A stretch of DNA of 64,000 nucleotides from Eledone cirrhosa (lineage: Eukaryota), in contig OZ024741.1 in the NCBI GenBank assembly GCA_964016885.1, positions 76,818,001 through 76,882,000 on the forward strand. The letters run 5' to 3'. Below are positions 4,790 through 59,562 of the stretch, piece by piece. The notes under the pieces are model-generated. The model saw nothing but the letters and a program-made list of their open reading frames with translations, was not told the origin of the DNA and did not search any database. How positions within the stretch are numbered: position 1 is the first letter of the stretch; each line of letters starts with the position of its first letter. The translations under genes and the position numbers were made by a program.

Positions 4790-4792
<3 letters not shown>

Positions 4793-5052
4793 CTGATGGT
4801 AGCTAAGATGCTTCCATAGGCGGTATGCCGGTTGAGCACTCTATGCTCTTACAGAGCAGAGTATGATATAATAGAAAACGGAAAATCAAAAAAGAGAATA
4901 TGCTCCGAAATCATTAGACGTATCCGTCGAACCTATGGGTCCATAATCAGACAAATCCACACAATGATCACGTCTCGAGCTGTCCACCGGCGAAACAATG
5001 GTAACACACAATAAATTAAGTTCAGATGCATCACTGATTTTTCGTTTTCTAT

Positions 5053-5058
<6 letters not shown>
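4790..5058. repeat. Unique island in (TA)n with a 22-bp inverted repeat and a ~76-nt unpaired extension
   Basis: TATAATAGAAAACGGAAAATCA (4867-4888) pairs with TGATTTTTCGTTTTCTATTATA (5035-5056) with 1 mismatch. Confidence 0.65.
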
Positions 5059-5096
<38 letters not shown>

Positions 5097-5115
5097 ATAT
5101 AATATATATATAGAG

Positions 5116-5303
5116 GGCGGTGGATTGGCAGTGTCGGTAGAGGGTCGGACGCCATGCTTTCCAGCATAGTTACGTCCCTTTACGATCTGAGTTCAAATCC
5201 CGCCGAGGTTGACTTTGCCTTTCATCCTTACGGGGTCGATAAAATAAAGTACCAGTAATGCACTGGGTAATTGCTGGCCTTGTGCCTAAAGTAGAAACAA
5301 TTA
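5116..5303 (+). mobile_element. SINE family 1, full length
   Basis: GGCGGTGGATTGGCAGTGTCGG...GAGTTCAAATCCCGCCGAGG...GTAGAAACAATTA, inserted in (TA)n. Confidence 0.9.
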
Positions 5304-5330
5304 TATATATATATATATATAAAGTAATAA

Positions 5331-7035
5331 CGTAACTAATCAGAGAGAGAATTGATCTAGATGAAATGCAGTTCGGGTTTGTGTCAGGCAAAAGTACAAC
5401 AGACGCTCTTTTCATTGTACGACAACTACAGGAGAAGTACCTAGCTAAAAGTAAACCCCTATACTTAGCTTTTGTTGACTTGGAGAAAGCCTTCGACAGA
5501 GTCCCCCGTTCCATTATCTGGTGGGCTCTTAGAAAACTAGGTGTTGACGAATGGCTTGTGAGAGCTATACAAGCCATGTATAAAGAAACAGTCAGCAAGG
5601 TTAGAATTAACAACGAATATTGTGAAGAGTTTAGCGTAAAAGTTGGCGTCCATCAGGGCTCTGTTCTCAGCCCCCTACTATTTATTATTGCCCTTCAGGC
5701 TATAACAGAGGAGTTCAAGACCGGTTGCCCATGGGAACTCCTATACGCAGATGACCTAACACTCATAGCTGAATCAATGGCCGAGCTAGAGAAGAAATTC
5801 CAAACATGGAAGCACGGCCTAGAATCAAAAGGCCTTAAAATTAACCTGGCTAAAGTTCTAGTTTGTAAGAAAGAAAATAAGGTGGCGGTCCCTTCCGGGA
5901 AGTGGCCATGCTCAGTGTGTAGGAAAGGCGTAGGTAGAAACTCCATTTTGTGTCCCAGATGCAAAGTATGGGTGCATAAAAGATGTAGTGGGATCACAGG
6001 TAAGCTAACTAAGAACATAGATTTTACATGTGGCCGGTGCTCTGATGCAATAAGTAGCAGCAAGTGCCCACAAAATACTAGCTCTTTCAACTGCGCAGAG
6101 GGTTCTATAGAAATAGTGGACAGCTTCCGTTACCTGGGTGACAAAATCAGCAGTGGGGGAGGGTGCTCTGAAAGTACAGTAGCTAGAGTCAGAAGTGGAT
6201 GGAAAAAGTTCAGAGAGCTTATACCACTATTAGCCGCTAAAGGGTTCTCCCTAAAAATGAAAGGCAGGTTGTATGATGCCTGCATATGAACAGCAATGTT
6301 GCATGGCAGTGAGACCTGGGCATTGTGTGCAGAGGATATACACAGACTAGAGAGAAACGAAGCTTGCATGCTCCGCTGGATGTGTAATAGTAATATACGT
6401 GAACGGCAAAGCATAAACGAACTAAGGGAGAAATTAGAAATAAGAGGGATCAGATGTTGTTTACTCGAGAGAAGGCTACGTTGGTATGGTCACGTGATGC
6501 GCATGAAAGACGACAGCTGTATAACAAAGTGCAGGGCAATAAAGATAGACGGTAGCCACGGAATAGGCAGACCCAGAAAAACCTGGGACGAGTTGATAAA
6601 TTCCGACCTCACACACTTACACCTCACCAAGACAATGTCACTGGACCGAGACCTTTGGCGGTACTCAGTAATAGAGAAGAGCCGCCTTACCTAAATACAA
6701 AAACCTACTACAGTCAGTAGGCATCTCTAACAAAATACACCCCCGTCCCACCACCCCCACCCCATCCACACTGCCCCTTTCAATGTAAAGTTATGTTGGT
6801 GCCACAACATCCAGGCCGAAACAAATGAGATCGTGTAGGCAACACGGTAAAAACCTCCCAGTCCCACACTGTAAATGTGGTTGGTGTTAGGAAGGGGATC
6901 CAACTGTAGAAAACCTGCCAGACAGTCCTATGCGAGCAACATAATCACTCTTGCATCAAGTGGGAAAACCCCCGTCCAAACCCATGCAAGCGTGGAACAC
7001 GGATGTTAAACGTTGATGATGATGATGATGATGAT
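5331..7035 (+). mobile_element. RTE-clade LINE (family A), 5'-truncated within the RT
   Basis: RT motifs QFGF, AFVDLEKAFDRV, GVHQGSVLSPLLF, LLYADD and FRYLG, followed by the 3' UTR and a (GAT)n tail at 7015-7035. Confidence 0.96.
5366..6694 (+). pseudogene. RTE ORF2 remnant (RT, embedded PHD-like finger, C-terminal domain) with one in-frame stop
   Basis: ORFs 5366..6289 and 6296..6694 are in the same frame. TGA at 6287-6289 corresponds to CGA in the copy at about 22623. Confidence 0.92.
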
Positions 7036-7055
7036 ATTATATATATATATATATT

Positions 7056-7577
7056 ATAAAGTTAAATAAAAGTCAAATGATTAAAATTTAGCTTCGTTTA
7101 TTACTGCTATATATATTTCAGTGACAGCCATCTTTGGCTGTGACCTCTTCAGGCAGTTTGAATTAGTATGGTATAGACAAGTACATATGTTGTTTAGGTG
7201 TATGATATTGTCAATACTCTGATATGCCCAGTTCCTTGTTGGGTTGTTAATTCACTGGGGAACTGGAGTCATATCAGTGAATTAACAACCCAACAAGGAA
7301 CTGGGCATATCAGAGTATTGACAATATCATACACCTAAACAACATATGTACTTGTCTATACCATACTAATTCAAACTGCCTGAAGAGGTCACAGCCAAAG
7401 ATGGCTGTCACTGAAATATATATAGCAGTAATAAACGAAGCTAAATTTTAATCATTTGACTTTTATTTAACTTTATTTTACACTACTCCGGAGTAACCAA
7501 ACCAACCTGCGCACTTCGTCGAGTGCTCCAGCCTGCATACTGAGGTGTTGGTATACAACCAACATAAACTCAAAATC
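7056..7577 (+). mobile_element. Penelope-like pseudo-LTR insert: perfect 202-bp inverted repeat plus a 101-nt unpaired tail
   Basis: 7056-7257 is the exact reverse complement of 7275-7476 (17-nt spacer). Each arm contains a hammerhead motif, and the insert is flanked by (TA)n. Confidence 0.8.
7375..7429 (+). ncRNA. Minimal type I hammerhead ribozyme (mirror copy on the - strand at 7103-7157)
   Basis: ACTGC-CTGAAGA-GGTCACAGCCA-AAGA-TGGCTGTCACT-GAAA-TATATA-TA-GCAGT: 5-bp stem I, intact core, stem II 10/11 paired, palindromic mini stem III, AUA cleavage triplet. Confidence 0.85.
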
Positions 7578-7586
7578 TATATATAT

Positions 7587-7618
<32 letters not shown>

Positions 7619-8850
7619 ATATTATATATATATATATAATATATATATATTATATATATATATATATATTATATATATATATATATTATATATATATATT
7701 ATTTATATAATATATTATATATATATATTATATATATATATATTATATATATATATATAATATATATATATTATATATATATATTATATATATATATATA
7801 ATATATATATATTATATATATATATATAATATATATATATTATATATATATATTATATATATATATATAATATATATATATTATATATATATATTATATA
7901 TATATAATATATATATATTATATATATATATATAATATATATATATTATATATATATATATAATATATATATATTATATATATATATATTATATATATAT
8001 ATATTATATATATATATAATATATATATATATATATTATATATATATATTATATATATATATATATAATATATATATATTATATATATAAATATATTATA
8101 TATATATATATATTATATATATATATCTAATATATATATATTATTGTTATACTTTGGGAGGGTCATGTTGCCAATAAAAAACAATATATATACATTATAT
8201 ATATATAATTTATATATATGATATATATATATATATTATATATATAATATATATATATTCATATATATATATATATTATATATATAATATATGTATATTA
8301 TATATATATATTATATATATATATATAATATATTTATATTATATATATATATTATATATATTATATATATACTATATAATATATATATATATTATATATT
8401 ATATATTATATATATATAATATATATATATATTATATATATATAATATATATATATTATTGTTATACTTTGGGAGGGTCATGTTGCCAATAAAAAACAAT
8501 ATATATATATTATATATAATGTATATATATGATATATATATATATATTATATATATATATATATAATATATATATATTATATATATAATATATGTATATT
8601 ATATATATATATTATATATATATATATTATATATATTATATATATATATTATATATATATATATTATATATATATATATTATATATATTATATATATATA
8701 TTATATATATATATATTATATATATATATATTATATATATTATATATATATATTATATATATATATATTATATATTATATATATTATATATATATATATT
8801 ATATATATTATATATATTATATATATATATTATAAAATATATTATATATA

Positions 8851-8891
<41 letters not shown>

Positions 8892-9031
8892 TATATATAT
8901 ATATATATTATATATATTATATATATATATTATATATATTATATATATATATATTATATAATATATATATATATTATATATATATATATATAATATATAT
9001 ATATATATTATATATATATAATATATATATA
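7578..9031. repeat. ~1.45 kb (TA)n array with phase shifts
   Basis: Almost pure alternating A/T with TT/AA slips; it contains two copies of a 43-bp unique motif. Confidence 0.97.
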
Positions 9032-9590
9032 TTATTGTTATACTTTGGGAGGGTCATGTTGCCAATAAAAAACACACGCACCAGTTGCTTTCACTTCAAT
9101 TTATTATAAATTTATAAATTTCTGGTTGGTTGGTTGGTTCCACAACCTGATGATTGTGTATATATTGTCAAAGTTCTTTCGTCACACATTCTGTGACCTC
9201 TTCAGTGACTGGGGATTCTTTTCTTTGTTTTTCTGCCTCTCCTTTGTTCTATCCTACGCCATCTTGTTTTTGTGTGTGTTGTGTGCTTAGTTTGTGCATG
9301 TGTTACATCCGGGTGTCTGTGTCTGTTTATATTTGTTTATTTATTTGTTTATTTACATGTTATTGGTTGGTTGTTTGTTCTATGTGCGTGTGTGTCTTCA
9401 CAATGCTGTACTAGTTTCAAGCTTATTAGCTATCGTCAGTAACGTATACCTTCCTGCCAGATGGTTAGTACAGCTTTCCTTTGTCAGTGTTGAACAAATG
9501 AGCAACGATGGTTGCTAGACACTGTATGGCTTAATTTGGGATGTTTGTTTACAAACACACCGAGCATTATAATAAATGTTCGGTGAAGCC
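9032..9590 (-). mobile_element. Probable Penelope-like 3'/pLTR fragment with a hammerhead motif at 9167-9209
   Basis: Minus strand reads GTCA-CTGAAGA-GGTCACA-GAATG-TGTGAC-GAAA-GAAC-TT-TGAC. It shares CTGAAGAGGTCACA with the 7375 ribozyme and ends in (TA)n. Confidence 0.62.
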
Positions 9591-9760
9591 ATACGTACAT
9601 ATATATATGTGTGCATGTATGTATATATATATACATACTACTGTACGTCTGTATACATATATGTATGTACGTATACATACTTATATTTAAGTAACAGCCG
9701 CACTAAGAGTGGGAAATGAAATTTCGTTTCATCTTTTCCATATATATAATATATATATAT

Positions 9761-9993
9761 AATTGTTTCTACTTTAGACACAAGGCCAGCAATTACCCAA
9801 TAATATATATATATATAATTGTTTCTACTTTTGGCACAAGACCAGCAAATACCCAGTACATTACTGGTACTTTATTTTATCGACCCCGTAAGGATGAAAG
9901 GCAAATTTAACCTCGGCGGGATTTGAACTCAGACTGTAAAGGGACGTAACTATGCTAGAAAGCATGGCGTCCAACCCTCTACCAATACTGCCA
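9761..9993 (-). mobile_element. SINE family 1 (9817-9993) plus a duplicated 3' fragment (9761-9800)
   Basis: Reverse complement of the family 1 sequence. Confidence 0.88.
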
Positions 9994-10175
9994 ATATATT
10001 ATATATATATATATTATATATATATATATTATATATATATATATTATATATATATTATATATATATTATATATATATATATATTATATATATATTATATA
10101 TATATATATATTATATATATATATTATATATATATATTATATATATATATATTATATATAAATATATATATATAT

Positions 10176-10244
<69 letters not shown>
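9994..10244. repeat. (TA)n array
   Basis: Direct observation. Confidence 0.97.
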
Positions 10245-10245
<1 letters not shown>

Positions 10246-11630
10246 GTGAAAGGTTTATTAGTTTCATGCTCTTGAGAGTGAGGGGGGGGGGTAACGACGT
10301 TTCGGGCATAAGCTATTCTTCAAGCGAAAAGTGGGTGGGAAGAGAGTTCCGAGGGTTTGTAGGGGAGCGGAGGAGAGACATTTAGGAAGGGGGGGGGGGG
10401 CGGTGGAAGGGGTACAAATAAAAAAAAAATTTTTTAAATAAAAATAAAAATAAATATGAAGATAAACAAGTGGTGGAAGGGTGTGGGGCGTGTAGGGGTG
10501 GTGGCGGGTGGAGTGGGGAGAGGGAGGCAGGGTGTCCGAGCGGGGAGGGCTGAAGGTGGTGTATGTGTGTAGGTGTACGTGTGTGTGTGTATGTGAATGT
10601 GAGAGTTGGGGGAAGAACGAGGTTCCATGTTCAGGAAAATGCGTGTGTAGGGTGGGTGTAGGTCGGTGTGTGCGTGTGCGTGTGGATGGGGAAGGGTCAG
10701 AGGGGGGATTCCGGAGGCTGAGTGTGTATATATGTGGGGGTACGCACGTGTGTGTTGGTGTTTATACGTTTTGTGGATGTAGGTGGCGTGGTTCGAAAAA
10801 AATTTGTGTGAGTGTAGAGGGTGTGAAGAGTTGCCGGATATTTTCCATGTTATGGAGTAGATAGTAGGAACGATGGCCAATAGTGTGTAATCCGTGGTTG
10901 TGGTAGTCGGAAGAAGGGAGATGTGGGGTGCACGTGAAACAGGACGTGGTCAGAGGGTCAAGGCAGGATGAGGATTAGAGGAGAATGACAGGTGGAGAGG
11001 ACTGTGTGTATGTGTGTGAGGAGAAGTGGTCAGAGGGTCAAGGCATAGCAGCAGTAGAGGAGAATGGCAGGTGGTGAAAGTCAGTGTGTGCGGAGGTGCA
11101 GTGGACAGGGGAGAGGATGGGTAGCTGTGAAAGGTGGAGTGGGAAGGGGGTCATGCAGGGGGATGGGTGTGTATTAATAGAGGTTTTAGTGGGATGTGTG
11201 TGTGTGTGTGTGTGTGTGTATGAAGGGGTGTGGGTGGAGCAGGGAGAGGGAGAGAAAAGGTGTGGGGGACGGTGGAGGGAGTGTATTGTACTGGTGTGTG
11301 TGTGCGTGTTTGGATGAGTGTGTGTGTGGTGAAGGGGGTGTCAGTGGGTGTTAGTATACTGGTGGTGGGGAAAAGGTTAAATGCGGGTGTGTTAGTGGGG
11401 TTCAGGGGTGGTAGGGTGTGTAGAGTGGGTGTGGGTCGGTGTGTGTGTTCGTGTGATCGGGGGGATGTTAGTGGTATTAGTTGTGGGGTGGTTGGAGTGG
11501 ATGTGTGGGTGAGGGTTATTTGTGGTAGTAGGGTGTGTGGATAGTGTGAGTGCGTGTATATATGTACCGGTGCATGTGTGCGTGATAGGGGGAGGGGTGG
11601 GGATGTTAGTATTGTTAGTTGGGGGAGGGG
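10245..11630 (-). mobile_element. Strongly strand-skewed (G/T-rich on +) segment, probable Penelope-like 3' region
   Basis: Degenerate hammerhead on - at 10294-10326 (TTGAAGA..GC-TTAT-GCCC-GAAACGTC) followed by AATAAA. The minus-strand peptide YSITWKI...HSHKFF is reminiscent of the end of PLE GIY-YIG domains. Bounded by (TA)n. Confidence 0.45.
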
Positions 11631-11663
<33 letters not shown>

Positions 11664-11762
11664 ATATATATTATATATGTTATATATATATATATATTAT
11701 ATATATTATATATATTATATATATATATATTATATATATATATTATATATATATATATATAT

Positions 11763-11819
<57 letters not shown>

Positions 11820-11820
11820 A

Positions 11821-11863
<43 letters not shown>

Positions 11864-11871
11864 ATATATAT

Positions 11872-11942
<71 letters not shown>

Positions 11943-11948
11943 ATATTA

Positions 11949-12005
<57 letters not shown>

Positions 12006-12043
12006 ATATTATATATATTATATATATTATATATATATATATA
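11631..12043. repeat. (TA)n array
   Basis: Direct observation. Confidence 0.97.
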
Positions 12044-12414
12044 TTGGGGCACCCACTGATGATGAATTATAGGAGCCCACTTGAATATATATCTATTGAT
12101 GGTAGACAAGCTCCTACATAAATTGGTATAATTTCACCCAAATTGTAGGAATCCTATAATGAAACGAGACATCCATCTGGGAAGAGATATAGTAGATATG
12201 TCTCATATGAAATAATACAGCCAATTTTCCACGCAATACTTTTAGTTAGCACCCCGAACGCATAATTGGGAATATAATCACTTATTTCCTAATGGTTGTT
12301 GAGTGAGTTGGAATTTGGCCGGAGTATCGCTAAAAAGCTTTCTCCGATATTGTATTTATTTATATATATTATATATATATTTATATATATATATTACATA
12401 TATATATATATATT

Positions 12415-12443
<29 letters not shown>

Positions 12444-12447
<4 letters not shown>

Positions 12448-12631
12448 TGTTTCTACTTTAGGCACAAGACCAGCAATTACCCAGTGCATTACTGGTACTT
12501 TATTTTATCGACACCGTAAGGATGAAAGGCAAAGTCAACCTCGGCGGGATTTGAACTCAGATCGTAAAGGGACGTAACTATGCTGGAAAGCATGGCGTCC
12601 GACCCTCTACCGATACTGCCAATCCACCGCC
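12444..12631 (-). mobile_element. SINE family 1, full length, with an (ATT)n tail
   Basis: Reverse complement of the 5116-5303 copy, with (AAT)n at 12418-12446. Confidence 0.9.
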
Positions 12632-12678
12632 CTAAGCCATGTGCCTTCATATATACATATATATATATATATATATAT

Positions 12679-13020
12679 GAAGGCACATGGTTTAGTGGTT
12701 AGAGCATTGGCCTTGCAATCGAAAGGTTGTGAGTTCAATTCTCAGACCGGGTGATGTGTTGTTTCCTTGAGCAAGACACTTTATTTCACATTGCTCCAGT
12801 TTACTCAGCTGTAGAAATGAGATGATAGGGACTGGGGTCCATATCATTCCACTGCAAAGTGGTTTTGGAGGTGCCCTGTCGAAAAAGCACCCAGCACTCA
12901 CTGTAAATGAGGTTGGTGTTAGGAAGGGCATCCAGCTGTAGAAATCAAGCCAGAATCAGTTCCTGTCCCACCCTTGCAAGCAGGGAAAAAGCGGACATAA
13001 AATGAAATGATGATGATGAT
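12679..13020 (+). mobile_element. tRNA-derived SINE family 2 (tRNA head, CORE-like block, RTE-derived 3' tail)
   Basis: A-box TGGTTTAGTGG, B-box GAGTTCAATTC, and TGTTGTTTCCTTGAGCAAGACACTT. The 3' half matches the RTE family A 3' UTR and ends in (GAT)n. Confidence 0.88.
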
Positions 13021-13469
13021 ATATGTGGTTTTCTGCTAGCTTGTGTAGTGTGCATATTGATATTATATGCGAGTATATATAATAAAATCGTAATTGACAA
13101 TATACACAGAAATTGAACGAAGACTGTGTTACACTGTCTTATGTAATCAGTAACGTAATCCATGATACATTAAAAAAAGATGATATTATATATAAACTGC
13201 ATTAGGAGAAAATTAGTGACAGAAATATATGAATGTTTATTTAAGCGATCGCTAACCAGAAGTGTTGACATTTGAACATTTTAAAGTGAATCTTTAAATA
13301 AAGAATAAAATATATTTAATCAACAGCCACGAAATTTAGTAGATAAATTATGTAATATTCATTCATTATTTATTCAAAGTAATCCAACTTATTTTACTAA
13401 CTGGATTAAAAGAAATAAACCGTACGCAGTCCCGCACTCTTTACTTTATTATAGTTTAGATAATAATAA

Positions 13470-13596
13470 ATTTGAAGACTAAAATCCAAAGAGGGCTCGA
13501 TAAGGATAAATATATAAGAACCCTAGAGCAAATATTTATTAAAATAACAGATTAAAGTTTAAGCAGCGATTCTTTGCTTAAACTTTAATCTGTTAT
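13470..13596 (-). repeat. Inverted-repeat cassette (22-bp arms), same family as 35842-36070
   Basis: ATAACAGATTAAAGTTTAAGCA (13544-13565) pairs with 13575-13596. The left extension matches the reverse complement of about 35980-36070. Confidence 0.8.
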
Positions 13597-13675
13597 ATAT
13601 ATATTATGTAGCATCAAGGTTTTTCATAGAATAGATAAAGGAAAAAGAGGTTCTATGTTATGTACAGATATATTA

Positions 13676-13900
13676 TTATAAATAATTTCTCAACACAGTT
13701 GCTTGCTACACAAGGTTTCAAAGCCTACTCTAGCATAGGTCATAGTGACACTGTATATGCTAGTATTACTTATCATTGGCCATCCTATTTCTTTCCTGAT
13801 CGACAAGCAGCACTAGCATAGATAGTGTCACTATCACCTATACTAGAGTAGGTTTTGAAACCTTAGGTAGCAAGCAACTGTGTTGAGAAATTATTTATAA
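13676..13900. repeat. Diverged ~100-bp-arm inverted repeat with a hammerhead remnant
   Basis: TTATAAATAATTTCTCAACACAGTTGCTTGCTAC... pairs with ...GTAGCAAGCAACTGTGTTGAGAAATTATTTATAA. GAAACCTTAGGTA resembles hammerhead stem III plus the cleavage triplet. Confidence 0.78.
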
Positions 13901-13917
13901 CAATAATATATATTTTG

Positions 13918-14065
13918 GGGGCTTCCAGACTGTTCCGTCAGTCAAATTCATTCACAGGACATTAATAAGTCTGGAGATATAGTAGAAACTTGCCGAAAGT
14001 GCCACATACTGGGATCCAACTGAAAATTATGTTGAGATGCAAACTTCTTAACTGCACAGCTTGCC
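13918..14065 (-). mobile_element. Degenerate tRNA-derived SINE (third family)
   Basis: AGTAGAAACTTGCCGAAAGTGCCACATACTGGGA...AAACTTCTTAACTGCACAGC reads as a decayed tRNA head plus CORE-like block on the - strand. Confidence 0.5.
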
Positions 14066-15720: not shown

Positions 15721-15906
15721 ATATTTAATATAGAAATGGCTTATACAGGTCTAGAACTGATTCATTCTTTTGAAATCAATGGGAAAGAATGAAACAGCTA
15801 TAGTCCTGTAGAAGCCATTTCTATATTAAATATTGATGTTTTCACTCAACTAATGTATTGAGTACTTTATTAACTGTGGTTTCTCCTGATTTAATTTGGG
15901 ATCTAC
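15721..15906 (+). repeat. Imperfect 50-bp-arm inverted repeat plus a ~73-nt tail; family also at about 59035-59080
   Basis: 15721-15770 pairs with 15784-15833. GAATGAAACAG.T.TAGTCCTGTAGAAGC is shared with 59035-59063. Confidence 0.75.
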
Positions 15907-16018
15907 ATATATAATAGGTAGTTCAGTAGATTCATGGTTTACTGAGGAAAGTACCAAAATCAGCACTCTATGCTGAGGCAAAGTGTGTAGATGAGATTTT
16001 GGCTTTGCTTAAATAACA

Positions 16019-20989: not shown

Positions 20990-21002
20990 CCACACACACA
21001 TA

Positions 21003-21303
21003 TATATAAATGTACATATTGCATATTGAATAATATACAGGATTTTTATGAGAAACATTTGAAGGCCTTTATTTATGAATTTTTAAGGTTGTAACAAACG
21101 TCACACACCTAACCTCAGTAAAAGCTGGGGGAAGTAATCGACAATGCATCGTTTCTCACTGTTTTGCAGTTATCAAGACTATATATATCTCTACTTTTGC
21201 TGAGGTTAAAATACGCTACAATCTTATAGAACCTTAAAAATTCATAGCGAAAGGCCTTCAAATGTTTTTCATATTATTCAATATACAATACCTACATTTA
21301 TAT
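21003..21303. repeat. Diverged inverted repeat (~110-bp arms) with a hammerhead remnant
   Basis: AAACATTTGAAGGCCTTT..TATGAATTTTTAAGGTT..AACCTCAG pairs with CTGAGGTT..AACCTTAAAAATTCATA..AAAGGCCTTCAAATGTTT. GAAA-GGCC-TTC forms a palindromic stem III. Confidence 0.72.
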
Positions 21304-22534
21304 GTATATCGCTATATAGGAACACCAATACAAATTTATATATATATATATTAGTGTAGTTAATACGTAGCATTGTGAGATATGTAGTAAATGACTGATA
21401 AGATTTTTTTTAAAGCTGGTACAATGCAGTAGAAAATACGAAGGGCAAATGATGAAACAAAGCCGATGCAGGGCTGAAACAATATATATATATATATATT
21501 TAAATAATTTTGAAATGATTTTTTTGTTATCTTGGCGATTTAATGTTCTTCCTAACACATTGTTTGGTTTGCAAAATTATTTAAATTTGTGTTTCCTATT
21601 CAACAATGCTTCAAGCAAGCTACAAAACTCTGCTATATATATATATATATATAGATAAAGGCTACCACGTGAATAACCCACAGTGAAATTTGAACTTGGA
21701 ATACAAACAGCTAGAACAAATACAACAAGGTGTTTCATATGATGTTCCAACAATCCCACTAATCTATTACCTTGAATATGTACTTTATTTTATTGACACT
21801 GGAACCATGAAAGTAAAGTTCACCATGGCAGGATTTCAGCTGTGAGAGCCAGAACAAGGCAAGCCAATTTGTCGTATTGTTTAATTTACATAAAATCATA
21901 GCACCAACTACTTGTTCAGTCACAGTGTACTCTCTCTTACTGATTAAATATCTTGCTCAGATCAACTAAAGTTGCACTACTTTATGTGCATCTATCAACT
22001 ATAATTATGAGTGTCTGTGTGTGTATATATATATATATACACATTATATATATGTGTGTGTGTGTGTGTGCATGTGGTTGTGTGTATACACATTATATAT
22101 AAATATCAGGATTAAACCAGTATTAAACTAGTTAGACCATTGTTCAACAGAGTACTCGATACTTGGGATAGCAGAGTACAAGTAAGAAGTAACTATAAGG
22201 TTGTATCAAATACATACAAACACATAGGTATCTCTAGATTTATACACACACACACACACACATATATATATTCATATATATATATACATAGACATAGGTG
22301 ATGCTATTAAGTTAGACATGGCCTGGGCCAATACTGGCCAAAAGTTATCAAATTTTTAAAGTTATATATATATATATATGTGTGTATGTGTCTGTAACGA
22401 TGATATACACTCTTTTACTTGTTCAAGACCATGAGCTGAGGCACCACCATTATGTGTATATATATATATACTAGTAATAGTAATAGTTTGGTAAAGATAT
22501 CCACGGTAAGGAGCAACTGACCTTAATAATTGTG

Positions 22535-35841: not shown

Positions 35842-36070
35842 ATATTTATTAAAATAACAGATTAAAGTTTAAGCAAAGAATCGCTGCTTTCACCCTTAAC
35901 GGTATCTTCTGAAGATCCTGTTAAGGGTGAAAGCAGCGATTCTTTGCTTAAACTTTAATCTGTTATTTTAATAAATATTTTAATAAATATTTGCTCTAGG
36001 GTTCTTATATATTTGATATATATTTATCCTTATCGAGCCTTCTTTGGATTTTAGTCTTCACATTTATTAT
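35842..36070 (+). repeat. Perfect 59-bp-arm inverted repeat plus a ~90-nt tail, with a hammerhead-like core
   Basis: 35842-35900 is the reverse complement of 35920-35978. CTGAAGA-TCCTGTTAAGGGT-GAAA spans the spacer and right arm. Confidence 0.82.
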
Positions 36071-36097
36071 TATTACTATACATATCATATATATATA

Positions 36098-36285
36098 CAT
36101 AGTGAGGCAAAAGTCGCACACCATAGGGGTTAATTAATTAATGATGTTTTAAATTTTCATGTGTAATTATCATATGGGGGGTATTTTTCTACATATTGTT
36201 TACTCTATGTAATTGGTCAATATAACATTTATCATTGTCTTATCAATAAGTTATCCCTATGGTGCACGACTTGTGCCTCACCCTT
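36098..36285. mobile_element. Tc1/mariner-like MITE
   Basis: TIRs GTGAGGCAAAAGTCGCACACCATAGGG / CCCTATGGTGCACGACTTGTGCCTCAC with TA flanks. Confidence 0.8.
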
Positions 36286-46785: not shown

Positions 46786-46817
46786 ACTATACATATATAC
46801 ATACATACACACACATC

Positions 46818-46873
<56 letters not shown>

Positions 46874-46884
46874 TATACATATAG

Positions 46885-49520: not shown

Positions 49521-50009
49521 AATATAATATATGATAAAATACTAGTCAAGGGTGGTATACTTGTTAGTGCAATGGATAGGATGCCTTGGGTTTTTTCTGT
49601 CACTTTGCATTCTAAATTCAAATAGTTTAATCTGTTGCAAGCATTCAGAGCAGTTTCTAGCTTAGATACGTTCCTCCACCCCCTTTCCCACCAAAAGATT
49701 TCAGGCCCTTCTTTTCTGTCTAAGTGATAAAAATAAAGAAAACAAAACAAAATTGCCATTAATTTCAATATGTGGTCGGTGGATAGGTAATGAGAAAAGA
49801 AAAACAAACTGATACTGATGATATACCTGCAGTTCAGTCCCTCAGTGTATTGTATAAATGTTGATATATATCCAAGTATACCTACTTAGATAAATATACA
49901 CATATGTATCACAATAAGTGTTGCCATCTGTATGCATGTTCCGGAGAAATTCTGCATTAATCTATGAAGTTTCCTTTTTGCCATATTTAGAATTGTACAT
50001 ATACACATC

Positions 50010-50135
50010 ATACAGAGGCACTCAAATACAGAGGCACTCCAATAGAGGCACTCAAATACAGAGGCACTCCAATACAGGGGCACTCCAATACAGAGGCATT
50101 CCAATACAGAGGCACTCCAATACAGAGGCACTCCA
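50010..50135. repeat. 16-bp minisatellite (TACAGAGGCACTCCAA)n, about 8 units
   Basis: Direct tandem repeat with no spacers. Confidence 0.92.
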
Positions 50136-50258
50136 CTCAGGCATTTTCACTTCTTTTTTTTGTTGACACACATACTCAGTACATAATTCTGTTCCTCCTT
50201 CCCTATATATATTTAACTGTGTTCTAGTCTAGCCAATTTGCTATGTAAATATACTTCA

Positions 50259-50289
50259 CTGAAGAGATCTAATAAGATCGAAACATGTC
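50259..50289 (+). ncRNA. Hammerhead core lacking the 3' strand of stem I
   Basis: CTGAAGA-GATCT-AATA-AGATC-GAAA-CATG-TC: perfect core and stem II, palindromic ACATGT, GUC site. Confidence 0.6.
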
Positions 50290-51971
50290 CTTTGCTTTCA
50301 CCAAGTTGGCTTATAGACAAGTTCTACTCCCACTGCATTGTCTAAAAATGTTACAAAAAAAAAACTTGATCAGCTCAAGCTATAGGCATCCTCTCCTTTT
50401 CTCGGGATCCAAACATTCCTAAAGGGATTTTGGTTCTGAAATTCTGAGGATAGTCTCAGCTGATCAAAGAATTTTCTTATTTGCCATATTCAGAATGAGA
50501 AACTCTGTATGTATACTTTATGCCAAGGTACCCCCCCCCCCCCCCATTAAATATTTTTGCGTCTACTTTTTGTACACACACATGCACAGGTACACACACA
50601 CAAATACACACACATACACACACACATGTGCACACTTATAAGCACACGCACACACACACGCACACAACCTCATAATCAGCATCATTTCACGGCCAATTTT
50701 CCATGTTGGCATGAAATTGGATGGGTCGTTACAGACCAAGTTACACATCCACATACACTTACACACACACACACAAGTATATATATGCACAGTTGACCCT
50801 ATTTCAAGGTACAGAATGTGACCCACATTACAGTACAGCTCACATATTATCTAGGGCAGTGTAGCCACTCTCACTCTCTCCACACACATGCACATAATTC
50901 TGAATCACATACCAAAATAGTCAATCTGACTGACTGACAGACAAACCCATTCACTCATGGAGCTTGCAACAGCTCAAAACTCACTGATGTATTGTTTGGT
51001 TGTTGTTGTTTAGCCCTAGGTCATCTAAAATTGAACAGATCTATGATCAGGGGTATCCCATCCTTGATAAGTTCCAGTCATTTTGTATATCTAGGACTAC
51101 ATGTCATGTCTTTCTGCTTTAAGCCAGTAGAGTGTAATTCAAAGGAATTTAGCTGCTATTTCTACCAAGCAGTTTCTTCTGCTGTTACTATAATGGTTTC
51201 TTGATCCTCTCATCCAGAAAGCTGTGTACCTCTTCCTCCATATCATCATCTTTCTAAACCCACTTTATGCATCTGTCTCTCCTCCTCACACATTCCACAC
51301 TATATTTCACCCTCAAAATCCTGTGTACTGACCACTTTCTCCTGACCAGTCCTTCGACGCCCCCAGCCCTCCAACACACACACAACTGTAACTGTCTCCC
51401 CACCACCACCCCTAACTGACTATGACTTCCCACTTACATTACAGTGCTGAGGTTAAAATCAAACTTCTTAAGCTCCATATTTTTGGACTATATGTTTTTT
51501 GACTGTATGTTTTCGGACTGTACAATTCTGTACTCAATGCTTCTAGGCTTTCTATGCATGGGCTATATATTCTATTGCATGAACATTATAACTAATATTA
51601 TAAAACCTTTTGCCTAAAATCAATATATCTTTTGATATTTATAATTTTTAATACCTACATTATATGCTTTCACTATACCATTCTCTTACATATATTGATA
51701 TAATATTCTTGCTATAATATTTTTGTTATAATTTTTTGCTATAATTAATAACCATATCCTTATAAATAACATATACCTCCAATTATTTATATTATAGCTT
51801 TAATACAATTTTTCATTATAATCTTTCATTACAATGTTTATATCTCTTCAATTTTCTTATGCTCTTGCTCTTTAATATATTGATATTAACACTTATACTT
51901 AGTCTTCTCACCTATAATGTATCCTGCTAATGTTCTAGTGATTAGGAATATATTTGTTTTAACCTTTATAT

Positions 51972-52016
51972 GCTCTGATGATTCCAGACCTATATCTGGA
52001 TGAAACAATCATAAGC
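51972..52016 (+). ncRNA. Minimal hammerhead ribozyme (one stem III mismatch)
   Basis: GCT-CTGATGA-TTCCAGA-CCTATA-TCTGGAT-GAAA-CAATCA-TA-AGC. Confidence 0.65.
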
Positions 52017-52171
52017 TATTAAATGTTTTAAACACAATTTGATTGTTATTAATGTTGTATTTCTGCTCTGTATTATACTTGATATTTTACATTGAGCTAC
52101 TTTCTTACTGGTAATCGGGTAACACATAATATTACCCTTATCTTATTTATATTATTATATATAAATATAAT

Positions 52172-52224
<53 letters not shown>

Positions 52225-52335
52225 ATATGTGTTGATTGATCTTCGCAAACAATGAACTATATACTTAATAATAATAATATATATAGAAGATTGAACAATG
52301 AAAATAAATAAAACAAAGTTTAGTACTTAATTAAT

Positions 52336-52459
52336 CCATTGTTTTATAATCGTTTCAAAGGGCAAAATAAATTAAGATATTGATATATTGACTAATCGAG
52401 ATCATAGTATTAGTCTGGATAAAATACATCCATTCTGTCCTTTACCTCAGAAACAATGG
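52336..52459 (-). ncRNA. Degenerate hammerhead with a 9-bp stem I and a very long stem II
   Basis: Minus strand reads CCATTGTTT-CTGAGGT-AAAGGACAGAAT...ATTTTGCCCTTT-GAAA-CGATTA-TA-AAACAATGG; A9 is altered. Confidence 0.55.
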
Positions 52460-52611
52460 GTCAGGAAATTCTATTAAAAAGATACAAAAAATACAGGTAA
52501 AAGGACACATGGGAATATCTCGTCTATGAGGAAGAAGTGTGGTCAAATGAAGAGTGGAGAAAAAATTTAGAAGTAAAATAATAAGGATTACATAAAAGAC
52601 AGATAATATAG

Positions 52612-52895
52612 TAAAATAATAATAATGAAAACTATTGTGTACAGTGCTCAGGTGCATTACAACTCATCAAAGGTGCATGTATAGTACATAGAATAATGTA
52701 CAAATGTCAGGAAAGTGTACAGTGTATGAGTCATGATATACACACAGATACATGCTTGCGTTGGTATGGAGGGGGGAATATCAGGAGTAGTGTTGGTGAA
52801 TTTCAGGAAGCATGGAGGTTTTAAAGGATGCAATATCCCAACAGATAACAACTGATGAAGGTAGTTTGTTCCATGCTTCCGAAAGTCATGGGGGC
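52612..52895 (-). mobile_element. CR1-group LINE 3' end
   Basis: Reverse complement homologue of 32480-32770. Confidence 0.85.
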
Positions 52896-53084
52896 TGATT
52901 AAATCGATTAGAGTGTGTTATGGTAACAAATATCATTCAAATGTTCTGTGAGGAAATTAGGTAACCCTGGTAGTAGAATGACCATATATTTACACCTATA
53001 CATGTATATGTGTATACTATACAAACACAAATACATGTATATACACACATGCACACACACATACACACACTAAAGTATACATCA

Positions 53085-54070
53085 GCTGATTAGCCCGATT
53101 TGCATACAGAGCGATTTTACGGCTGGCTTTGCTGAAAATTAAAAACAAAATTAGAATTTCATTTCTCGTTCTCACATAGCGGGCTACATAAATGTATTTA
53201 TGAGTTTTATATCAAATATTAATAATTGTTTCTACTTTTGGCACAAGGCCAGCAATTATCCCAGTGCATTACTGGTACTTTATTTTATCGACCCCGTAAG
53301 GATGAAAGGCAAAGTCAACCTCGGCGGGATTTGAATATTAATAATAACACTCGGTTGGTTTGCAAGCAAATAGCTTCATTATGCTATGGTTTTTAGATGA
53401 CTATGATCATCCATTCTTTCTAGCGGTGGCATAGAAAAACAGTCAACATGTTTCTGGATTATTGCCCTTTGTCAAGACTATATTTCTCTGCCACTTGCTA
53501 GAACTGTTGAAAATATATAACATTTTCTGAAGTATACTTTGGCTGATTAGCCTCATTTGCATACCAGGCAATTTTATAGCTGACTTTGCCAAAAATTAAA
53601 AACAAAATTAGAATTTGATTTCTCGCTCTCACATAGCGGGGTTACATAAATATACTTCAGAAAATACTATATATTTTCGACAGTCCAAGCTAGTGGCAGA
53701 GAAATACATAGTCTTGACAAAGGGCAATAACCCAGAAACATGTTAATGAACAGCTGATGATGGTCATCTAAAAAACATAGTGTAATGAGGCTGTTTGCTT
53801 GCAAACCAATCAAATATTATTTGGCAGTATCGGTAGAGGGTCAGACGTCATGCTTTGACGCATAGAGTTACGGCCCTTTCCATTCTGAGTTCAAATCCCG
53901 CCGAGGTCAACTTTGCCTTTCATCCTTACGGGGTCGATAAAATAAAGTACCAGTAATGTACTGGGTAATTGCTGGCCGTGTGCCAAAAATAGAAACAATT
54001 ATTAATATTCAATATAAAACTCATAAATCAGCTATGTGAGAGAGAGAAATCAAATTCTAATTTTGTTTTT
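53085..54070. repeat. Compound ~1 kb diverged inverted repeat with hammerheads and mirror-positioned SINEs
   Basis: About 53140-53536 pairs with 53651-54070. A direct repeat links 53085-53195 and 53542-53655. SINE family 1 lies at 53225-53335 (-) and 53821-54000 (+). Confidence 0.8.
53441..53479 (-). ncRNA. Minimal hammerhead with a U3-A8 covariant core (mirror remnant at 53710-53744 +)
   Basis: Minus strand reads AGTC-TTGACAA-AGGG-CAATAA-TCCA-GAAA-CATG-TT-GACT. Confidence 0.62.
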
Positions 54071-54202
54071 ATATATATATACACACACGTACACATATAT
54101 ATATATACACATATACATACACACACACACATATATATATACATATGCATTTTTCCAATTCCACCCTGCCCATCCCTTCAATCTATCTAATTTATCATTC
54201 TT

Positions 54203-54238
54203 TCTGCTGATGAAGGACTAGTGTCCGAAACGTTAAGA
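54203..54238 (+). ncRNA. Minimal hammerhead, second copy of the 35531 family
   Basis: TCTG-CTGATGA-AGGAC-TAGT-GTCC-GAAA-CG-TT-AAGA. Confidence 0.7.
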
Positions 54239-54344
54239 CTCTCTTCCTGCTATTTCAAGCGTTAACCTAATATATTCCTCCCATATACTGAACCGATTGT
54301 GTTGTTATTTCTGTTTTCCTTTTACATACATATATATATATAAT

Positions 54345-54628
54345 CATCATAATCATCATTTTACATCCGCTTTTCCGTGCTTGCAAGGGTGGGACAGGAA
54401 CTTATTCTGGCTTGATTTCTACAGCTGGATGCCCTTCCTAACACCAACCTCATTTACAGTGAGTGCTGGGTGCTTTTTTGCCATCTCGTTTCTACAGCTG
54501 AGTAAACTGGAGCAATGTGAAATAAAGTGCCTTGCTCAAGGAAACAACACATTACCCGGTCTGAGAATTGAACTCACAACCTTTCGATTACAAGGCCAAT
54601 GCTCCAACCACTAAGCCATGTGCCTCCA
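54345..54628 (-). mobile_element. SINE family 2 with an internal deletion
   Basis: Reverse complement of 12679-13020 lacking about 50 bp of the middle. Confidence 0.87.
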
Positions 54629-57600
54629 TCAACGGACTGGGTGGAGTAGGAATTATGTTAGCTGAAAAATGGGTAGATAAGGTAATCGACGTAAATAGAG
54701 TAAATGACAATAATTAAAATAAGGCTAGTTCTAAATAAAACTACTGTGACAATAATATCCGCTTATGCACCCCAATCTGGTCTACTTGACGTTATAAAGG
54801 ACAGGTTCTATGAGACGCTAATGCACACTACCTCCCAAATAACCGACAGCGACTACCTAATTATTGCTGGCGATCTAAACGGCCACGTTGGACAACATAG
54901 TGATGGCTATGATGGAATCCATGGAGGCTATGGGGTTGGAAATAGAAATGAGGAAGGCTTCAGAATCCTGGAATTCTGTGACACCAATAACCTAACTATC
55001 TGTAACACAAACTTCAAAAAACGTGAAAACCACTTGATCACCTATAGATCAGGGGAACATGCCAGCCAGATAGATTATATCCTTACTAGAAGACGAGACA
55101 AAGTGTCTGTTGTAAACACTAAATCCCTCCCCTGTGAAGAATGCACCTCCCAACATAGCCTAGTAGTTAGTGACCTCACAGTCAGAAATAGACGTACTCA
55201 ACGACAGAGGAGGCCTACCTTGAGGAGAAGAATATGGAAGTTGAAGGACCCCATAGCCAGTGACAAATTTAAAAGCTTATTACTTGATGCCTTTGACAAT
55301 AAGGAAGAGCAATTAGAGACGTGCGATATAGAGGAACAGTGACAATTCTTGAAAGTGAACCTGCTGAAAGCAACGGATGAAATCTGTGGCCGGAGCAGAC
55401 CTATTGGCAGGAGGAGAGTAACTTGGTGGTGGAACAGTAAGGTAGAAGAGACAATCAAGACCAAAAAGCAGGCTTGGAAAGTATGGCAGGATGGGGGAAG
55501 TAGAGAGCACTATCAAGTGGCCAGGAGAAAAGCTAGGAGACAAGTGTACCTTGCAATAAGGGAAGCAGAGGATAGAAAGTTCAAGCATGTTCTACAACGT
55601 GAGGACCAAAAACGCGAGGTGTTCAGGAATGCTAGACAACGTGTCAAGGAAAACCATGATATTGTCGGGGAGAAGTGTGTCCGTAATGATAACGGTGTAC
55701 TTGCCCTCACTTATGCTGATAAGAAGATAGCCTGGAAGTGTCACTACGAGAGACTATTAAATGAGGAGAATAAGTGGGAAAAAGATAGTCTGCCCCAAAT
55801 CGATCCAATAGAAGGACCAGCGGTGCAAGTTAAAGGTAGTATAATAAGTAAGGTAATCAAAGATATAAAGACAGGCAAGGCAGCTGGGCCTTCAGAGATA
55901 GTTGCTGAGATGTTGAAGGCATCTGGAATGGTGGGACATACTATGGTCACCCGTATAGTTAACCAAGTAATACAGAATGGGGTCATACCAAAAGACTGGC
56001 GTAGCAGCATCATCATTAACTGCTACAAGGGTAAAGGAGATGCTCTAGATAGAGGAAACTATAGAGGCATTAAGTTAGTTGACCAGGTCATGAAGGTCAC
56101 AGAAAGAGTTATAGCGCAACTAATCAGAGAGCGAATTGATCTAGATGAAATGCAGTTTGGGTTTGTGTCAGGTAAAAGTACCACAGACGCTCTTTTCCTT
56201 GTACGACAACTACAAGAGAAGTACCTAGCTAAAAGTAAACCCCTCTACTTAGCTTTTGTAGACCTGAAAAAAGCCTTTGACAGAGTCCCCCGCTCCATTA
56301 TCTGGTGGGCTCTTAGAAAACTAGGTGTAGATGAATGGCTTGTGAGAGCTATACAAGCCATGTATAATGAAACAGTCAGTAAGGTTAGAATTAACAATGA
56401 ATATTGTGAAGAATTTAGTGTAAAAGTTGGTGTTCACCAAGGCTCTGTCCTTAACCCCTTATATTTATTATTGCCCTTCAGGCTATAACAGAGGAGTTCA
56501 AGACCAGCTGCCCATGGGAACTCCAATACGCAGATGATCTAACGCTCATAGCTGAATCAATGGCTGAACTAGAAAATAAATTCCAAACATGGAAGCATGG
56601 CCTAGAATCAAAAGGCCTTAAAGTTAACTTGTCTAAGACTAAAGTCCTAGTTTGTAGAAATGAAAATAAGGCACAGGTACCCTCAGGGAAATGGCCTTGC
56701 TCAGTGTGTAGGAAAGGAGTAGGCAGAAATTCAATTTTATGTCCCAAATGCAAAGTTTGGGTACATAAAAGATGGTAAACTGTCTAAGAACGTAGACTTT
56801 ATATGTGGCCGATGCTCAGGTGCCATAGGTAGCAAGTGTCCACAAGATACTAGCCCCTTCTATTGCCCAGATGGTTCTATAGAAATAGTAGACACTTTCC
56901 ATTACCTGGGTGACGAAATCAGCAGTGGTGGAGGGTGTTCTGAAAGTACAGTAGCCATAGTCAGAACGGGAGGGAAAAAGTTCAGAGAGCTTATACCGCT
57001 GTTGGCCACAAAAGGTTTCTCTCTAAAAATGAAAGGCAGATTGTATGATGCTTGTATACGAACATCAATGCTACATGGCAGTGAGACATGGGCATTGTGT
57101 GCAGAGGACCTGCGTAGACTGGAAAGGAACGAAGCATGCATACTCCATTGGATGTGTAATAGTAATATACGTGAACGGCAAAGCATAAATGAGAAATTAG
57201 TCAGAAATTAGGAATAAGAGGTCAGATGTTTACTCGAGAGAAGACTACGTTGGTATGGCCACGTGATGCGCATGAAAGACGACAGCTGTATAAAAAAGTG
57301 CAGGGCGATCAAAATTGATGGTAGTTACGGAGTAGGTAGACCCAGAAAAACCTGGGACGATCTGATAAATTCCGACCTTACACACTTGCACCTCTCTAAG
57401 ACAATGTCACTGGACCGAGATCTTTGGCGCTACACAGTAATACAGAAGACCTGCCTTGCCTATGTACAAAGTGAAACCTACAGTCAGTAGGGACCTCTTA
57501 ACCAAATATACACCCCAATCCACTACCCTTACCCTATCCTCCCACTCCCACCAACACCAACCTCTCTCTATAAAGTTGGTAACACAACATCCAGTCCAAA

Positions 57601-57878
57601 TAAATTAGATAAATGAGATCGTGTAGGTGTCACGAGAAAAAAACACACAGTCCACGCTGTAATGTGGCCATGTAGGTAACACGGTAAAAAGTTCCCAGTT
57701 CCACACTGTAAATGTGGTTGGTGTTAGGAAGGGCATCCAGCCGTAGAAAACCTGCCACATAGTCCTATATGAGCGAGACATGGTCACCCGACCAACCTTG
57801 CTTCAAGTGAGACAACTCCCGTCTTACCCATGCTAGCGTGGAAAATGGACGTTAAACGAAGATGATGATGATGATGAT
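54629..57878 (+). mobile_element. Near full-length RTE family A LINE (APE, RT, PHD-like finger), inactivated
   Basis: APE motifs GVGIML, ISAYAPQ, GDLNGHVG, SQIDYIL, QHSLVV. RT in ORF 55349..56488, with YADD near 56530. Stop at 55340 and several frameshifts. 3' UTR and (GAT)n tail present. Confidence 0.96.
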
Positions 57879-58207
57879 ATCATCATTTTACGTCCGCTTT
57901 TCCCTGCTTGCAAGGGTGGGACAGGAACTGATTCTGGCTTGATTTCTACAGCTGGATGCCCTTCCTAACACCAACCTCATTTACAGTGAGTGCTGGGTGC
58001 TTTTTTTTCTGTGGCACCTCCACGACCACTTTGCAGTGGAATGATATGGACCCCAGTCCCTATCATCTCATTTCTACAGCTGAGTAAACTGGAGCAATGT
58101 GAAATAAAGTGTCTTGCTCAAGGAAACAACACATCACTCGGTCTGAGAATTGAACTCAACCTTTCAATTGCAAGGCCAATGCTCTAACCACTAAGCCATG
58201 TGCCTTC

Positions 58208-58208
<1 letters not shown>
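57879..58208 (-). mobile_element. SINE family 2, full length, tail-to-tail with the LINE
   Basis: Reverse complement of 12679-13020. Confidence 0.9.
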
Positions 58209-58286
<78 letters not shown>

Positions 58287-58582
58287 CATATATAAACAAA
58301 CACATGTGTATATATATATATATATACACACATATATATATATATAAAGTTAAAGTTAAGGTATATATATAATTTCAGTTTTTTAATTAGAATCCTTAGT
58401 TGTGAAGTATAAACTCTTACAAATGTTACTCGGTAACACAGAAAAACTGATTATCATATGATGCTGTAATTATATAATGAATATTCTGGAACATATTTGA
58501 AAATTAAGAAAAATTCAAGGTAGATGTATCTGGAGACAGATTTGCCAACTGGTATAACAAATGAGATGCCCAGTACGCCCCT

Positions 58583-58742
58583 AATAATTGTTTCTACTTT
58601 TGGCACAAGGCCAGCAATTATCCCAGTGCATTACTGGTACTTTATTTTAACCACGGTGGGATTTGAACTCAGATCATAAAGGGATGTAACTCCATGCTTC
58701 AAAGCATGGCGCCCGACCCTCTACCAATACTGCCAATCCACC
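58583..58742 (-). mobile_element. SINE family 1 with a central deletion
   Basis: Matches the family 1 head and 3' end. Confidence 0.85.
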
Positions 58743-59089
58743 TAATAATACCCTCCTTTTATGCTATAGCAGCCGCCACATCCTTATATTCCCAAACCCA
58801 CCTTCTACCATATCATCTCTACAACTGTGACCTGACCCAGTCAATCTTAACCCCCACCCCTCCACCATCAGACCCATCTCCCCCACATACAGTAGAGAGC
58901 TCTTTAATCAAGTCAATGACAGCCAACCATATATATATATATATAGATATATACAGATATATATTTATATATACATTTATATATATATAGAGAGAGAGAG
59001 ATAAGTTATTCTGGGTTCAATCGGGGGTAACCACGAATGAAACAGTTCTAGTCCTGTAGAAGCTTTTCTATATTAAAATATATATATAT

Positions 59090-59369
59090 ATACAATATGT
59101 TGAAAAGGTAACACACTAGAGATATACAGTGCGCTATCAATAAAACAGGGAAAAAACCACCAATGTATGGAATCTATAACCTATGAAAGGCAGACTATAG
59201 ATTCCATACACTGGTGGTTTTTTCCCTGTTTTATTGATAGCGCACTGTATATCTCTAGTGTGTTACCTTTTCAACATATTGTATTTTAAAGAGCTCAGGA
59301 TTTCTTCTCCTTCGAGCACATTATTTACAGGGAATGGCGAAGCTCTATGGCTCCGTTAATTTATCGTGA
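59090..59369 (+). repeat. 89-bp-arm inverted repeat (1 mismatch) plus an 85-nt tail in (TA)n
   Basis: 59090-59178 pairs with 59196-59284 across a 17-nt spacer. Confidence 0.88.
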
Positions 59370-59386
59370 TATATATATATATATAT

Positions 59387-59562
59387 ATATAATTGAATAA
59401 ACAAGAGAGATGAACACTAATATAAACATATATGTGTTCGAATCGTAAGGACTAAAATTTGCTAGGGTGAAAAAAGTGTTCATCTCTCTTGTTTATTCAA
59501 TTATATTGTACGGGTTGGAAAAGCTTTTTTCTTAGAGCTATTTAATTGTAAGAGTTCTTAAC
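59387..59562 (+). repeat. Perfect 32-bp-arm inverted repeat plus a 56-nt tail
   Basis: 59387-59418 pairs with 59475-59506. Confidence 0.82.

Follow-up and report, generated by a model that had tools for sequence, protein, structure and literature searches.

What fixes the outer ends of an inverted repeat that carries an unpaired tail on one side only? The question is posed by a 64,000-nt window of Eledone cirrhosa DNA (assembly GCA_964016885.1, contig OZ024741.1, positions 76,818,001 to 76,882,000 of the forward strand), part of a 3.0-Gb genome, in sequence rich in (TA)n microsatellites. The window contains cassettes associated with (TA)n runs, each made of an inverted and a direct half with a tail on one of the two. 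We find that these cassettes almost certainly belong to Penelope-like elements (PLEs), that their outer ends are likely to be two starts of reverse transcription on one RNA, and that each start probably owes its position to a bulged RNA stem that follows it at a distance of about 0-15 nt. We put the probability of the full model, twin priming at two stem-defined sites on a single RNA, at roughly 0.65; its narrower part, that the stems set the starts of reverse transcription, we hold to be slightly more probable.

Families of cassettes with fixed ends

A preliminary description of the window had listed seven asymmetric inverted repeats in unrelated sequences, with (TA)n on both sides and tails of similar length. 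All seven exist, but the cassettes at 13470 and 35842 are one family (92-100% identical), which leaves six families, named here by position. The (TA)n runs are clear on both sides of five cassettes and weak or missing on one side of the other two, 15721 having only about (TA)3 and 13470 no (TA)n at its tail end; at 59387, (TC)n precedes the (TA)n. Over 30 loci in each family, the copies agree in the tail, which terminates at a fixed point, the distal site D; the inverted half terminates at another, the proximal site P, and the inner ends are variable. In family 7056, for example, the inverted halves stop at query positions 202-206 across copies. Tails that were mere flanking DNA would have told against the preliminary description; conservation of the tails among copies held in the families examined. 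Tail length is constant within a family, to which extent the supposed narrow range is real, but it spans 33-172 nt over 16 mapped families (63-172 nt in those with the stem described below), and the 56-nt tail of the window copy of 59387 reflects an 11-nt deletion from a family tail of 74 nt. The families are abundant: a 42-mer of 7056 has 1622 exact matches in the genome, and the others gave 912-2294 first-look candidates each, which are not copy numbers.

We also took a blind sample of 800 kb (80 stretches of 10 kb, evenly stepped along five large contigs). Here 124 of 318 inverted repeats contact (TA)n on one side only, and for 57 of these 124 the next (TA)n lies 40-99 nt off, against about 6.5% for random points. 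Among 197 element ends scored for the 16 families, 97 fall at D, 77 at P and one elsewhere, and 22 lack a microsatellite; one further end lies at a locus edge. The earlier proposals of (TA)n targets and of a second fixed start are thus both borne out: a microsatellite adjoins 175 of the 197 ends, of which just one is off P and D, and both sites are fixed by family. The head-to-head pairs combine one P with one D end in 37 of 39 cases, versus 49% under independent choice (p=9e-10), and in 68 of 73 when all loci not fetched for the family are counted. Moreover, the two halves of a cassette share alleles. Mismatches at polymorphic sites, within as against between cassettes, amount to 3/169 vs 11%, 0/17 vs 38%, 10/108 vs 27% and 3/32 vs 36% in the four comparisons, and therefore both halves were copied from one template, unless they were converted later.

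Two explanations of a quite different kind can be weighed at this point. The cassettes might be fixed non-autonomous DNA elements with asymmetric sub-terminal inverted repeats, like Helentrons and Helentron-associated interspersed elements (HINEs) or miniature inverted-repeat transposable elements (MITEs). In family 4790 each of the 30 best-scoring loci covers the 263-nt query from end to end, as such elements would; their inner joints nevertheless differ among copies, the arms of 7056 vary between 31 and 321 nt, the tail sits on the direct or the inverted half depending on the copy, and three families read into reverse transcriptase (RT) open reading frames (ORFs). The DNA-element explanation is refuted for 7056, 35842 and 59090, the fixed joints that it needs for 4790 were not seen, and we regard it as very improbable overall. 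The view of the preliminary description that these are not MITEs was correct, since fixed termini together with a fixed internal structure were not found across copies; any target-site duplication would be masked by the (TA)n on either side. Families 4790 and 15721 are short, and in 4790 (loci L151-L180) the inverted halves halt within about 10 nt of one point, a clustering that top-score selection may cause and that hints at a short RNA whose 5' end is defined. The perfect identity of the 202-nt arms at 7056 could likewise be taken for a fold-back chimera of long reads or assembly. The asymmetry is, however, fixed by family on many contigs, old copies have diverged arms (90% at 15721), and the same ends recur in independent metagenome assemblies, which makes an artefact a negligible prospect.

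The cassettes are 5'-truncated, head-to-head PLE ends in (TA)n, of the Hydra clade where a link to an ORF was found. Read-through copies run past D into Hydra-type ORFs in families 7056 (L216), 35842 (L221, L220 and L247) and 59090 (L003, which reaches the start of the ORF), in agreement with the Penelope-type origin suggested earlier. The second priming had been supposed to lie a set distance from the RNA end; since the element continues past D in these copies, through a second stem and into the ORF, both starts are internal. The ORF of family 35842 encodes 709 aa, with many open frames of 713 codons and 515 homologues, and shows RWR, DKT, CNCx5C and a GIY-YIG core without CxxC; that of 7056 shows RWK and DKT. 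By eye, the Hydra-type ORFs resemble published Hydra consensi. Pfam, a sequence search of the PDB and pairwise BLAST did not recognise the ORF of 35842. The predicted model of a homologue 43% identical to it (mean model confidence, pLDDT, 89.8) has telomerase reverse transcriptase (TERT) as its best match (E=7.7e-9), and the GIY-YIG motif (IVYKC...AYIG) was read by eye, with the Pfam GIY-YIG family matching just 1 of 46 homologues. Families 59387, 15721 and 4790 are assigned to the Hydra-type group tentatively, through shared signals only.

Hammerhead cores with long stems were read by eye in 59090, 59387 and 15721, and family 4790 has no canonical hammerhead. Among the matches listed from Rfam (150 of 192) there was no hammerhead, only sub-threshold microRNA hairpins. 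The hammerhead of 35842 (window 35904-35960) reads CAGAAGA, not CTGAAGA; a recurrent fold-back joint restores CTGAAGA and loses stem I.

Other PLEs share these targets. An RT/GIY-YIG ORF in L004 was considered as the partner of 59090 and rejected: its family is a distinct one outside the Hydra clade, has a tail of 41 nt without a stem, and became a control. An abundant non-Hydra PLE (loci L181-L215) has in L211 (3453-6077, minus strand) an intact 875-aa ORF with RVT_1, a GIY-YIG domain with CxxC and a CX4C-X6-CC linker; its stemless 41-nt tail lies over the start of the ORF, and a first look gave 22,130 candidates. Two further PLE types (L299, L218 and L309; L286) are, to judge by their motifs, probably one Nematis-like (tail family c7) and one Neptune-like. 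The (TA)n sites are shared by at least four PLE types.

Bulged stems and the choice between one priming and two

Grouping the 226 cassettes from all fetched loci into 71 clusters, we scanned downstream of P for the pattern NCTC-XX..X'X'-bb-GAGN. A bulged stem, RCTC-XX..X'X'-UN-GAGY(RC), begins within about 2-15 nt after P in 22 of the 71 clusters (shuffles: mean 0.36, maximum 3) and in 16 of the 32 with more than one member. Its outer pair is A-T in 12 clusters, G-C in seven, G-T in one and mismatched in two (covariation, Fisher p=5e-4), and the bulge begins with T in 21 of 22; pair probability is 0.90-0.99 in four window tails. Beyond D, each of the seven families that offer a clear read-through (7056, 59090, 35842, 59387, c5, c0 and an L250 family) shows a second copy of the stem, so that the tail corresponds to the spacing of two stems. 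Both stems sit in the 5' untranslated region (UTR) ahead of the ATG. Seven families tie the stem to Hydra-type ORFs, and c7, c10 and c31, which have no stem, are tied to other PLE ORFs. One apparent exception, stem family c30 next to a non-Hydra ORF in L299, was rejected as a nested insertion.

A blind test found the same arrangement outside this genome. Of 77 metagenome loci of Hydra type, 66 matched at the N terminus with some 80 nt or more of upstream sequence, and 56 were left after removal of near-duplicates. One stem occurs in 46 of the 56 and two in 27, compared with 1.45 and 0.02 in shuffles and 17 and 0 on the reverse strand. The paired stems are 55-83 nt apart, and their inner pair, which the pattern does not impose, is paired in 71 of 73. 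With 14 contig-end rows, TA-only rows and two read-throughs set aside, the repeat end lies -8 to +1 nt from a stem in 15 of 19 informative cases; of these, six adjoin stem 1, and nine adjoin stem 2 or, where a single stem was seen, that one. In published Hydra consensi, judged by eye, the stem is at the expected places in four of six, among them coral, sea cucumber and copepod, and partial in one; the sixth ends before it. The literature and supplements that we searched, to the exclusion of picture-only figures, bioRxiv supplements and subscription journals, hold no description of the twin stem.

The preliminary description had placed the second priming at an AT-rich microhomology. The microhomology is there, the modal overlap between element end and repeat being 2-8 nt at eight of eight sites in four families, where random positions give about 1 nt, with the phase TA/AT in nearly all. 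The ends could then be set by short UA-rich matches alone, and the stems, both of which precede the ATG, could have another role in the 5' UTR, as a promoter or in translation or packaging, and merely lie close by. Overlaps of at least 3 nt are, however, offered at 7-11% of positions in the AT-rich pseudo-long terminal repeat (pLTR), a frequency hard to reconcile with a single microsatellite-adjoining end in 175 off P and D, and the ends track the stems in the unrelated metagenome elements. We therefore consider it improbable that microhomology acts alone; it does not by itself explain the position, and the conserved stem downstream does.

A stronger rival is a single priming event at D, after which the cDNA would fold back on a palindrome and copy itself, and an endonuclease would cut the hairpin at P; the stem motif would then be a mark of DNA cleavage, at least for P. 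Self-priming is argued for in PMC3846280 and endonuclease-mediated resolution in PMC8557442. The sharing of alleles is equally compatible with fold-back or with arm-to-arm gene conversion, and 20 of 54 inner joints are symmetric (equal within 4 nt), often at natural palindromes, which keeps fold-back viable. The other joints speak differently: the P half is longer in 26 and shorter in eight (p=0.003), and six D halves, like the one at window 59000-59078, stop short of P and hence could not have served as template for the P end, barring a later loss of the centre. Furthermore, inner joints overlap by at least 4 nt in 16 of 54 cases versus 2% expected. Taken together, the longer P halves, the short D halves and the inner overlaps favour two primings. 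The stem itself also stands behind D, that is, outside the insert, and the variability of its loops, the constant 2 nt of its 3' bulge and the covariation of its inner pairs are consistent with RNA. A fold-back origin is thus unlikely in our judgement, though less so than the other alternatives.

Several observations weigh against twin priming at stem-defined sites. The P+D rule also holds in the stemless families c7, c8, c10, c13, c14 and c31, which means that other PLEs produce the layout without a stem. In the window, the stem of the 7056 and 13470 copies has pair probabilities of only 0.17 and 0.12. As to stem 2, it is degenerate in L282, a dedicated search for it gave no match in family 4790 and just three unconvincing ones in 15721, and in L250 a read-through resembling 15721 shows a GCTC that lacks its partner. 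Ten of the 56 metagenome loci have no stem, and four of the 19 ends lie elsewhere. No link to an ORF was found for 59387 or 4790, and for 15721 there is only a 17-nt link in a relative; under the strict hammerhead descriptor nothing qualified beyond 7056 and the CAGAAGA variant in 35842. The families were defined from asymmetric cassettes, by which always-symmetric families are hidden. Finally, PMC11167929 reports non-homologous starts in Poseidon.

Considering these findings together, the following pathway can be envisioned. An RT-GIY-YIG protein, perhaps a dimer, would bind both stems and nick both strands of a (TA)n target; cDNA would be primed at a UAU-like site upstream of each stem, aided by TA microhomology of 2-5 nt; and the two truncated cDNAs would anneal head to head, with microhomology at the inner joint. 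Tail length would then be the spacing of the stems, and arm length would express RT processivity. The broader generalisation, that tandem bulged stems are portable anchors, one for each RT start, conserved over cnidarians, echinoderms, crustaceans and this genome, and that they let a dimeric RT-endonuclease join an insert to its target at both ends through two primings on the same RNA, has in our view an even chance of being right. If it is, the PLE tail would be encoded in cis by portable twin stems, which would also amount to a programmable signal for two-ended retro-integration. A covarying RNA motif behind both starts defines exact mutants to test. The stem also offers a way of calling Hydra-clade ends and non-coding passengers without an ORF, and stem-marked PLE ends explain abundant fold-back repeats overlooked by Pfam and Rfam.

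Cassettes and neighbouring repeats in the window

Table 1. Cassettes of the six families and one armless cassette in the 64,000-nt window (window coordinates).
Feature	Position	Strand	Details
7056, arms	7056-7257/7275-7476		202 nt, 100% identity; tail 101 nt
7056, inverted half	7056..7273	-	ends at P; hammerhead core at 7152
7056, direct half	7275..7577	+	ends at D; type I hammerhead core at 7380; tail 7477-7577
7056, stem 1	7485..7524	+	ACTC...TC-GAGT-GC; pair probability 0.17
59090, arms	59090-59178/59196-59284		89 nt, 99%; tail 85 nt
59090, inverted P half	59090..59195	-	
59090, D half	59196..59369	+	tail 59285-59369; stem 1 59293-59317, GCTC...GAGC, pair probability 0.99
35842, arms	35842-35908/35912-35978		67 nt by ungapped extension, 97%; tail about 90 nt; 12-nt tandem duplication inside right arm
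35842, inverted P half	35842..35910	-	
35842, D half	35912..36078	+	stem 1 35993-36038, pair probability 0.90; 3' part of variant hammerhead
13470 (second of family 35842, reversed)	13462..13596	-	arms 13544-13565/13575-13596, 22 nt, 100%
13470, stem	13529-13495		pair probability 0.12; tail has 11-nt deletion
15721, cassette	15721..15906	+	arms 15721-15770/15784-15833, 50 nt, 90% (older); tail 15834-15906, 73 nt
15721, stem	15844-15863		pair probability 0.95
59387, cassette	59387..59562	+	arms 59387-59418/59475-59506, 32 nt, 100%; tail 56 nt
59387, halves	59387-59474; 59475-59562		inverted P half; D half
59387, stem	59513		degenerate, GGTT vs family GCTC; 11-nt tail deletion
4790, cassette (reversed)	4790..5057	-	arms 4866-4888/5035-5057, 23 nt, 96%; tail 76 nt
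4790, halves	4888-4790; 4889-5057		D half, tail 4865-4790; inverted P half
4790, stem	4862-4838		pair probability 0.90
Armless cassette	59000..59078		35-nt inverted D end + 47-nt direct P end, sharing CAC; 15721-related family

The long spacers of 4790 and 59387 are the unpaired remainder of the inverted half. The armless cassette, absent from the preliminary description, is stacked in one microsatellite with 59090 and 59387. A 1.45-kb degenerate (TA)n array (7578-9032) lies immediately past the tail of 7056; runs as long as this next to young inserts point to an array that grew when the insert arrived or slipped afterwards. At other loci of that family (L064, L066, L078 and L080), (TC)n often stands between the D end and (TA)n, as if the terminal TC had slipped in priming.

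Further repeats in the window are of other kinds. A large diverged inverted repeat (407-1908, blocks of 76-94%) consists of 3' ends of RTE-like long interspersed elements and a repeat resembling short interspersed elements, and a symmetric MITE-like element (36103-36283), with imperfect terminal inverted repeats of about 28 nt beside TA runs, is unlike the cassettes. Fold-backs outside the six families lie at 13671-13905 (94-nt arms), 21000-21307 (blocks of 37-44 nt) and 53140-54071 (nested blocks of 41-76 nt).

Comparison with known systems

In L1 twin priming, two primings on one RNA lead to an inversion joined by microhomology, with the first site at the poly(A) end and the second variable. 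The likeness to our cassettes is in the two primings on one RNA; the difference is that here both sites are internal and fixed.

Among PLEs, the layout of inverted pLTR, one-sided tail, (TA)n targets and two RT starts is already published, and the stem at both ends is the new part. The preliminary description had presented the layout as the footprint of an integration mechanism in its own right, which it is not, because it appears in PMC3846280, PMC8557442 and PMC11167929: the first two describe an inverted truncated pLTR, a one-sided tail and (TA)n targeting, and the third, on the only PLE reconstituted so far, a tail bounded by two internal RT starts. Arkhipova et al. 2013 (PMC3846280) shares with our cassettes the inverted pLTR, the optional tail and palindromes at the inverted joint and explains them by self-priming, whereas two primings are the better account of our armless cassettes and of those with the longer P half.

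The Hydra-clade PLEs of Craig et al. 2021 (PMC8557442), which lists Hydra-1_Obim, have in common with ours RW[KR], DKT, a CxCx5C linker, the lack of CCHH, a length below 3 kb and (TA)n targets, and apparently also a C-terminal GIY-YIG and a pLTR hammerhead. Its text and searchable supplements mention no twin stem, and it puts the PLE tail at 30-40 bp, against 63-172 nt in the stem families here. The same work names the origin of PLE tails and inverted ends as open.

A mechanistic parallel is Poseidon PAc (Frangieh et al. 2024, PMC11167929), where the tail is delimited by two internal RT starts, AT-rich DNA is nicked and extended on both strands, the reaction depends on RNA located downstream of the starts, and a dimer is predicted; for our elements the dimer is only proposed. 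The Poseidon starts lie inside the ORF, in an AC-rich stem-loop and without target homology, in contrast to the 5' UTR position, 2-5 nt (TA)n overlap and repeated stem after each start seen here. Lastly, families 59090 (units of about 530 bp at locus L008) and 59387 also form tandem units of about 515-540 bp with hammerhead-like cores, as do the non-LTR retrozymes described as non-autonomous PLEs (bioRxiv 10.64898/2026.07.22.740005). Unlike retrozymes, these units keep both stems and the P and D ends, which points to mobilisation by Hydra-type proteins.

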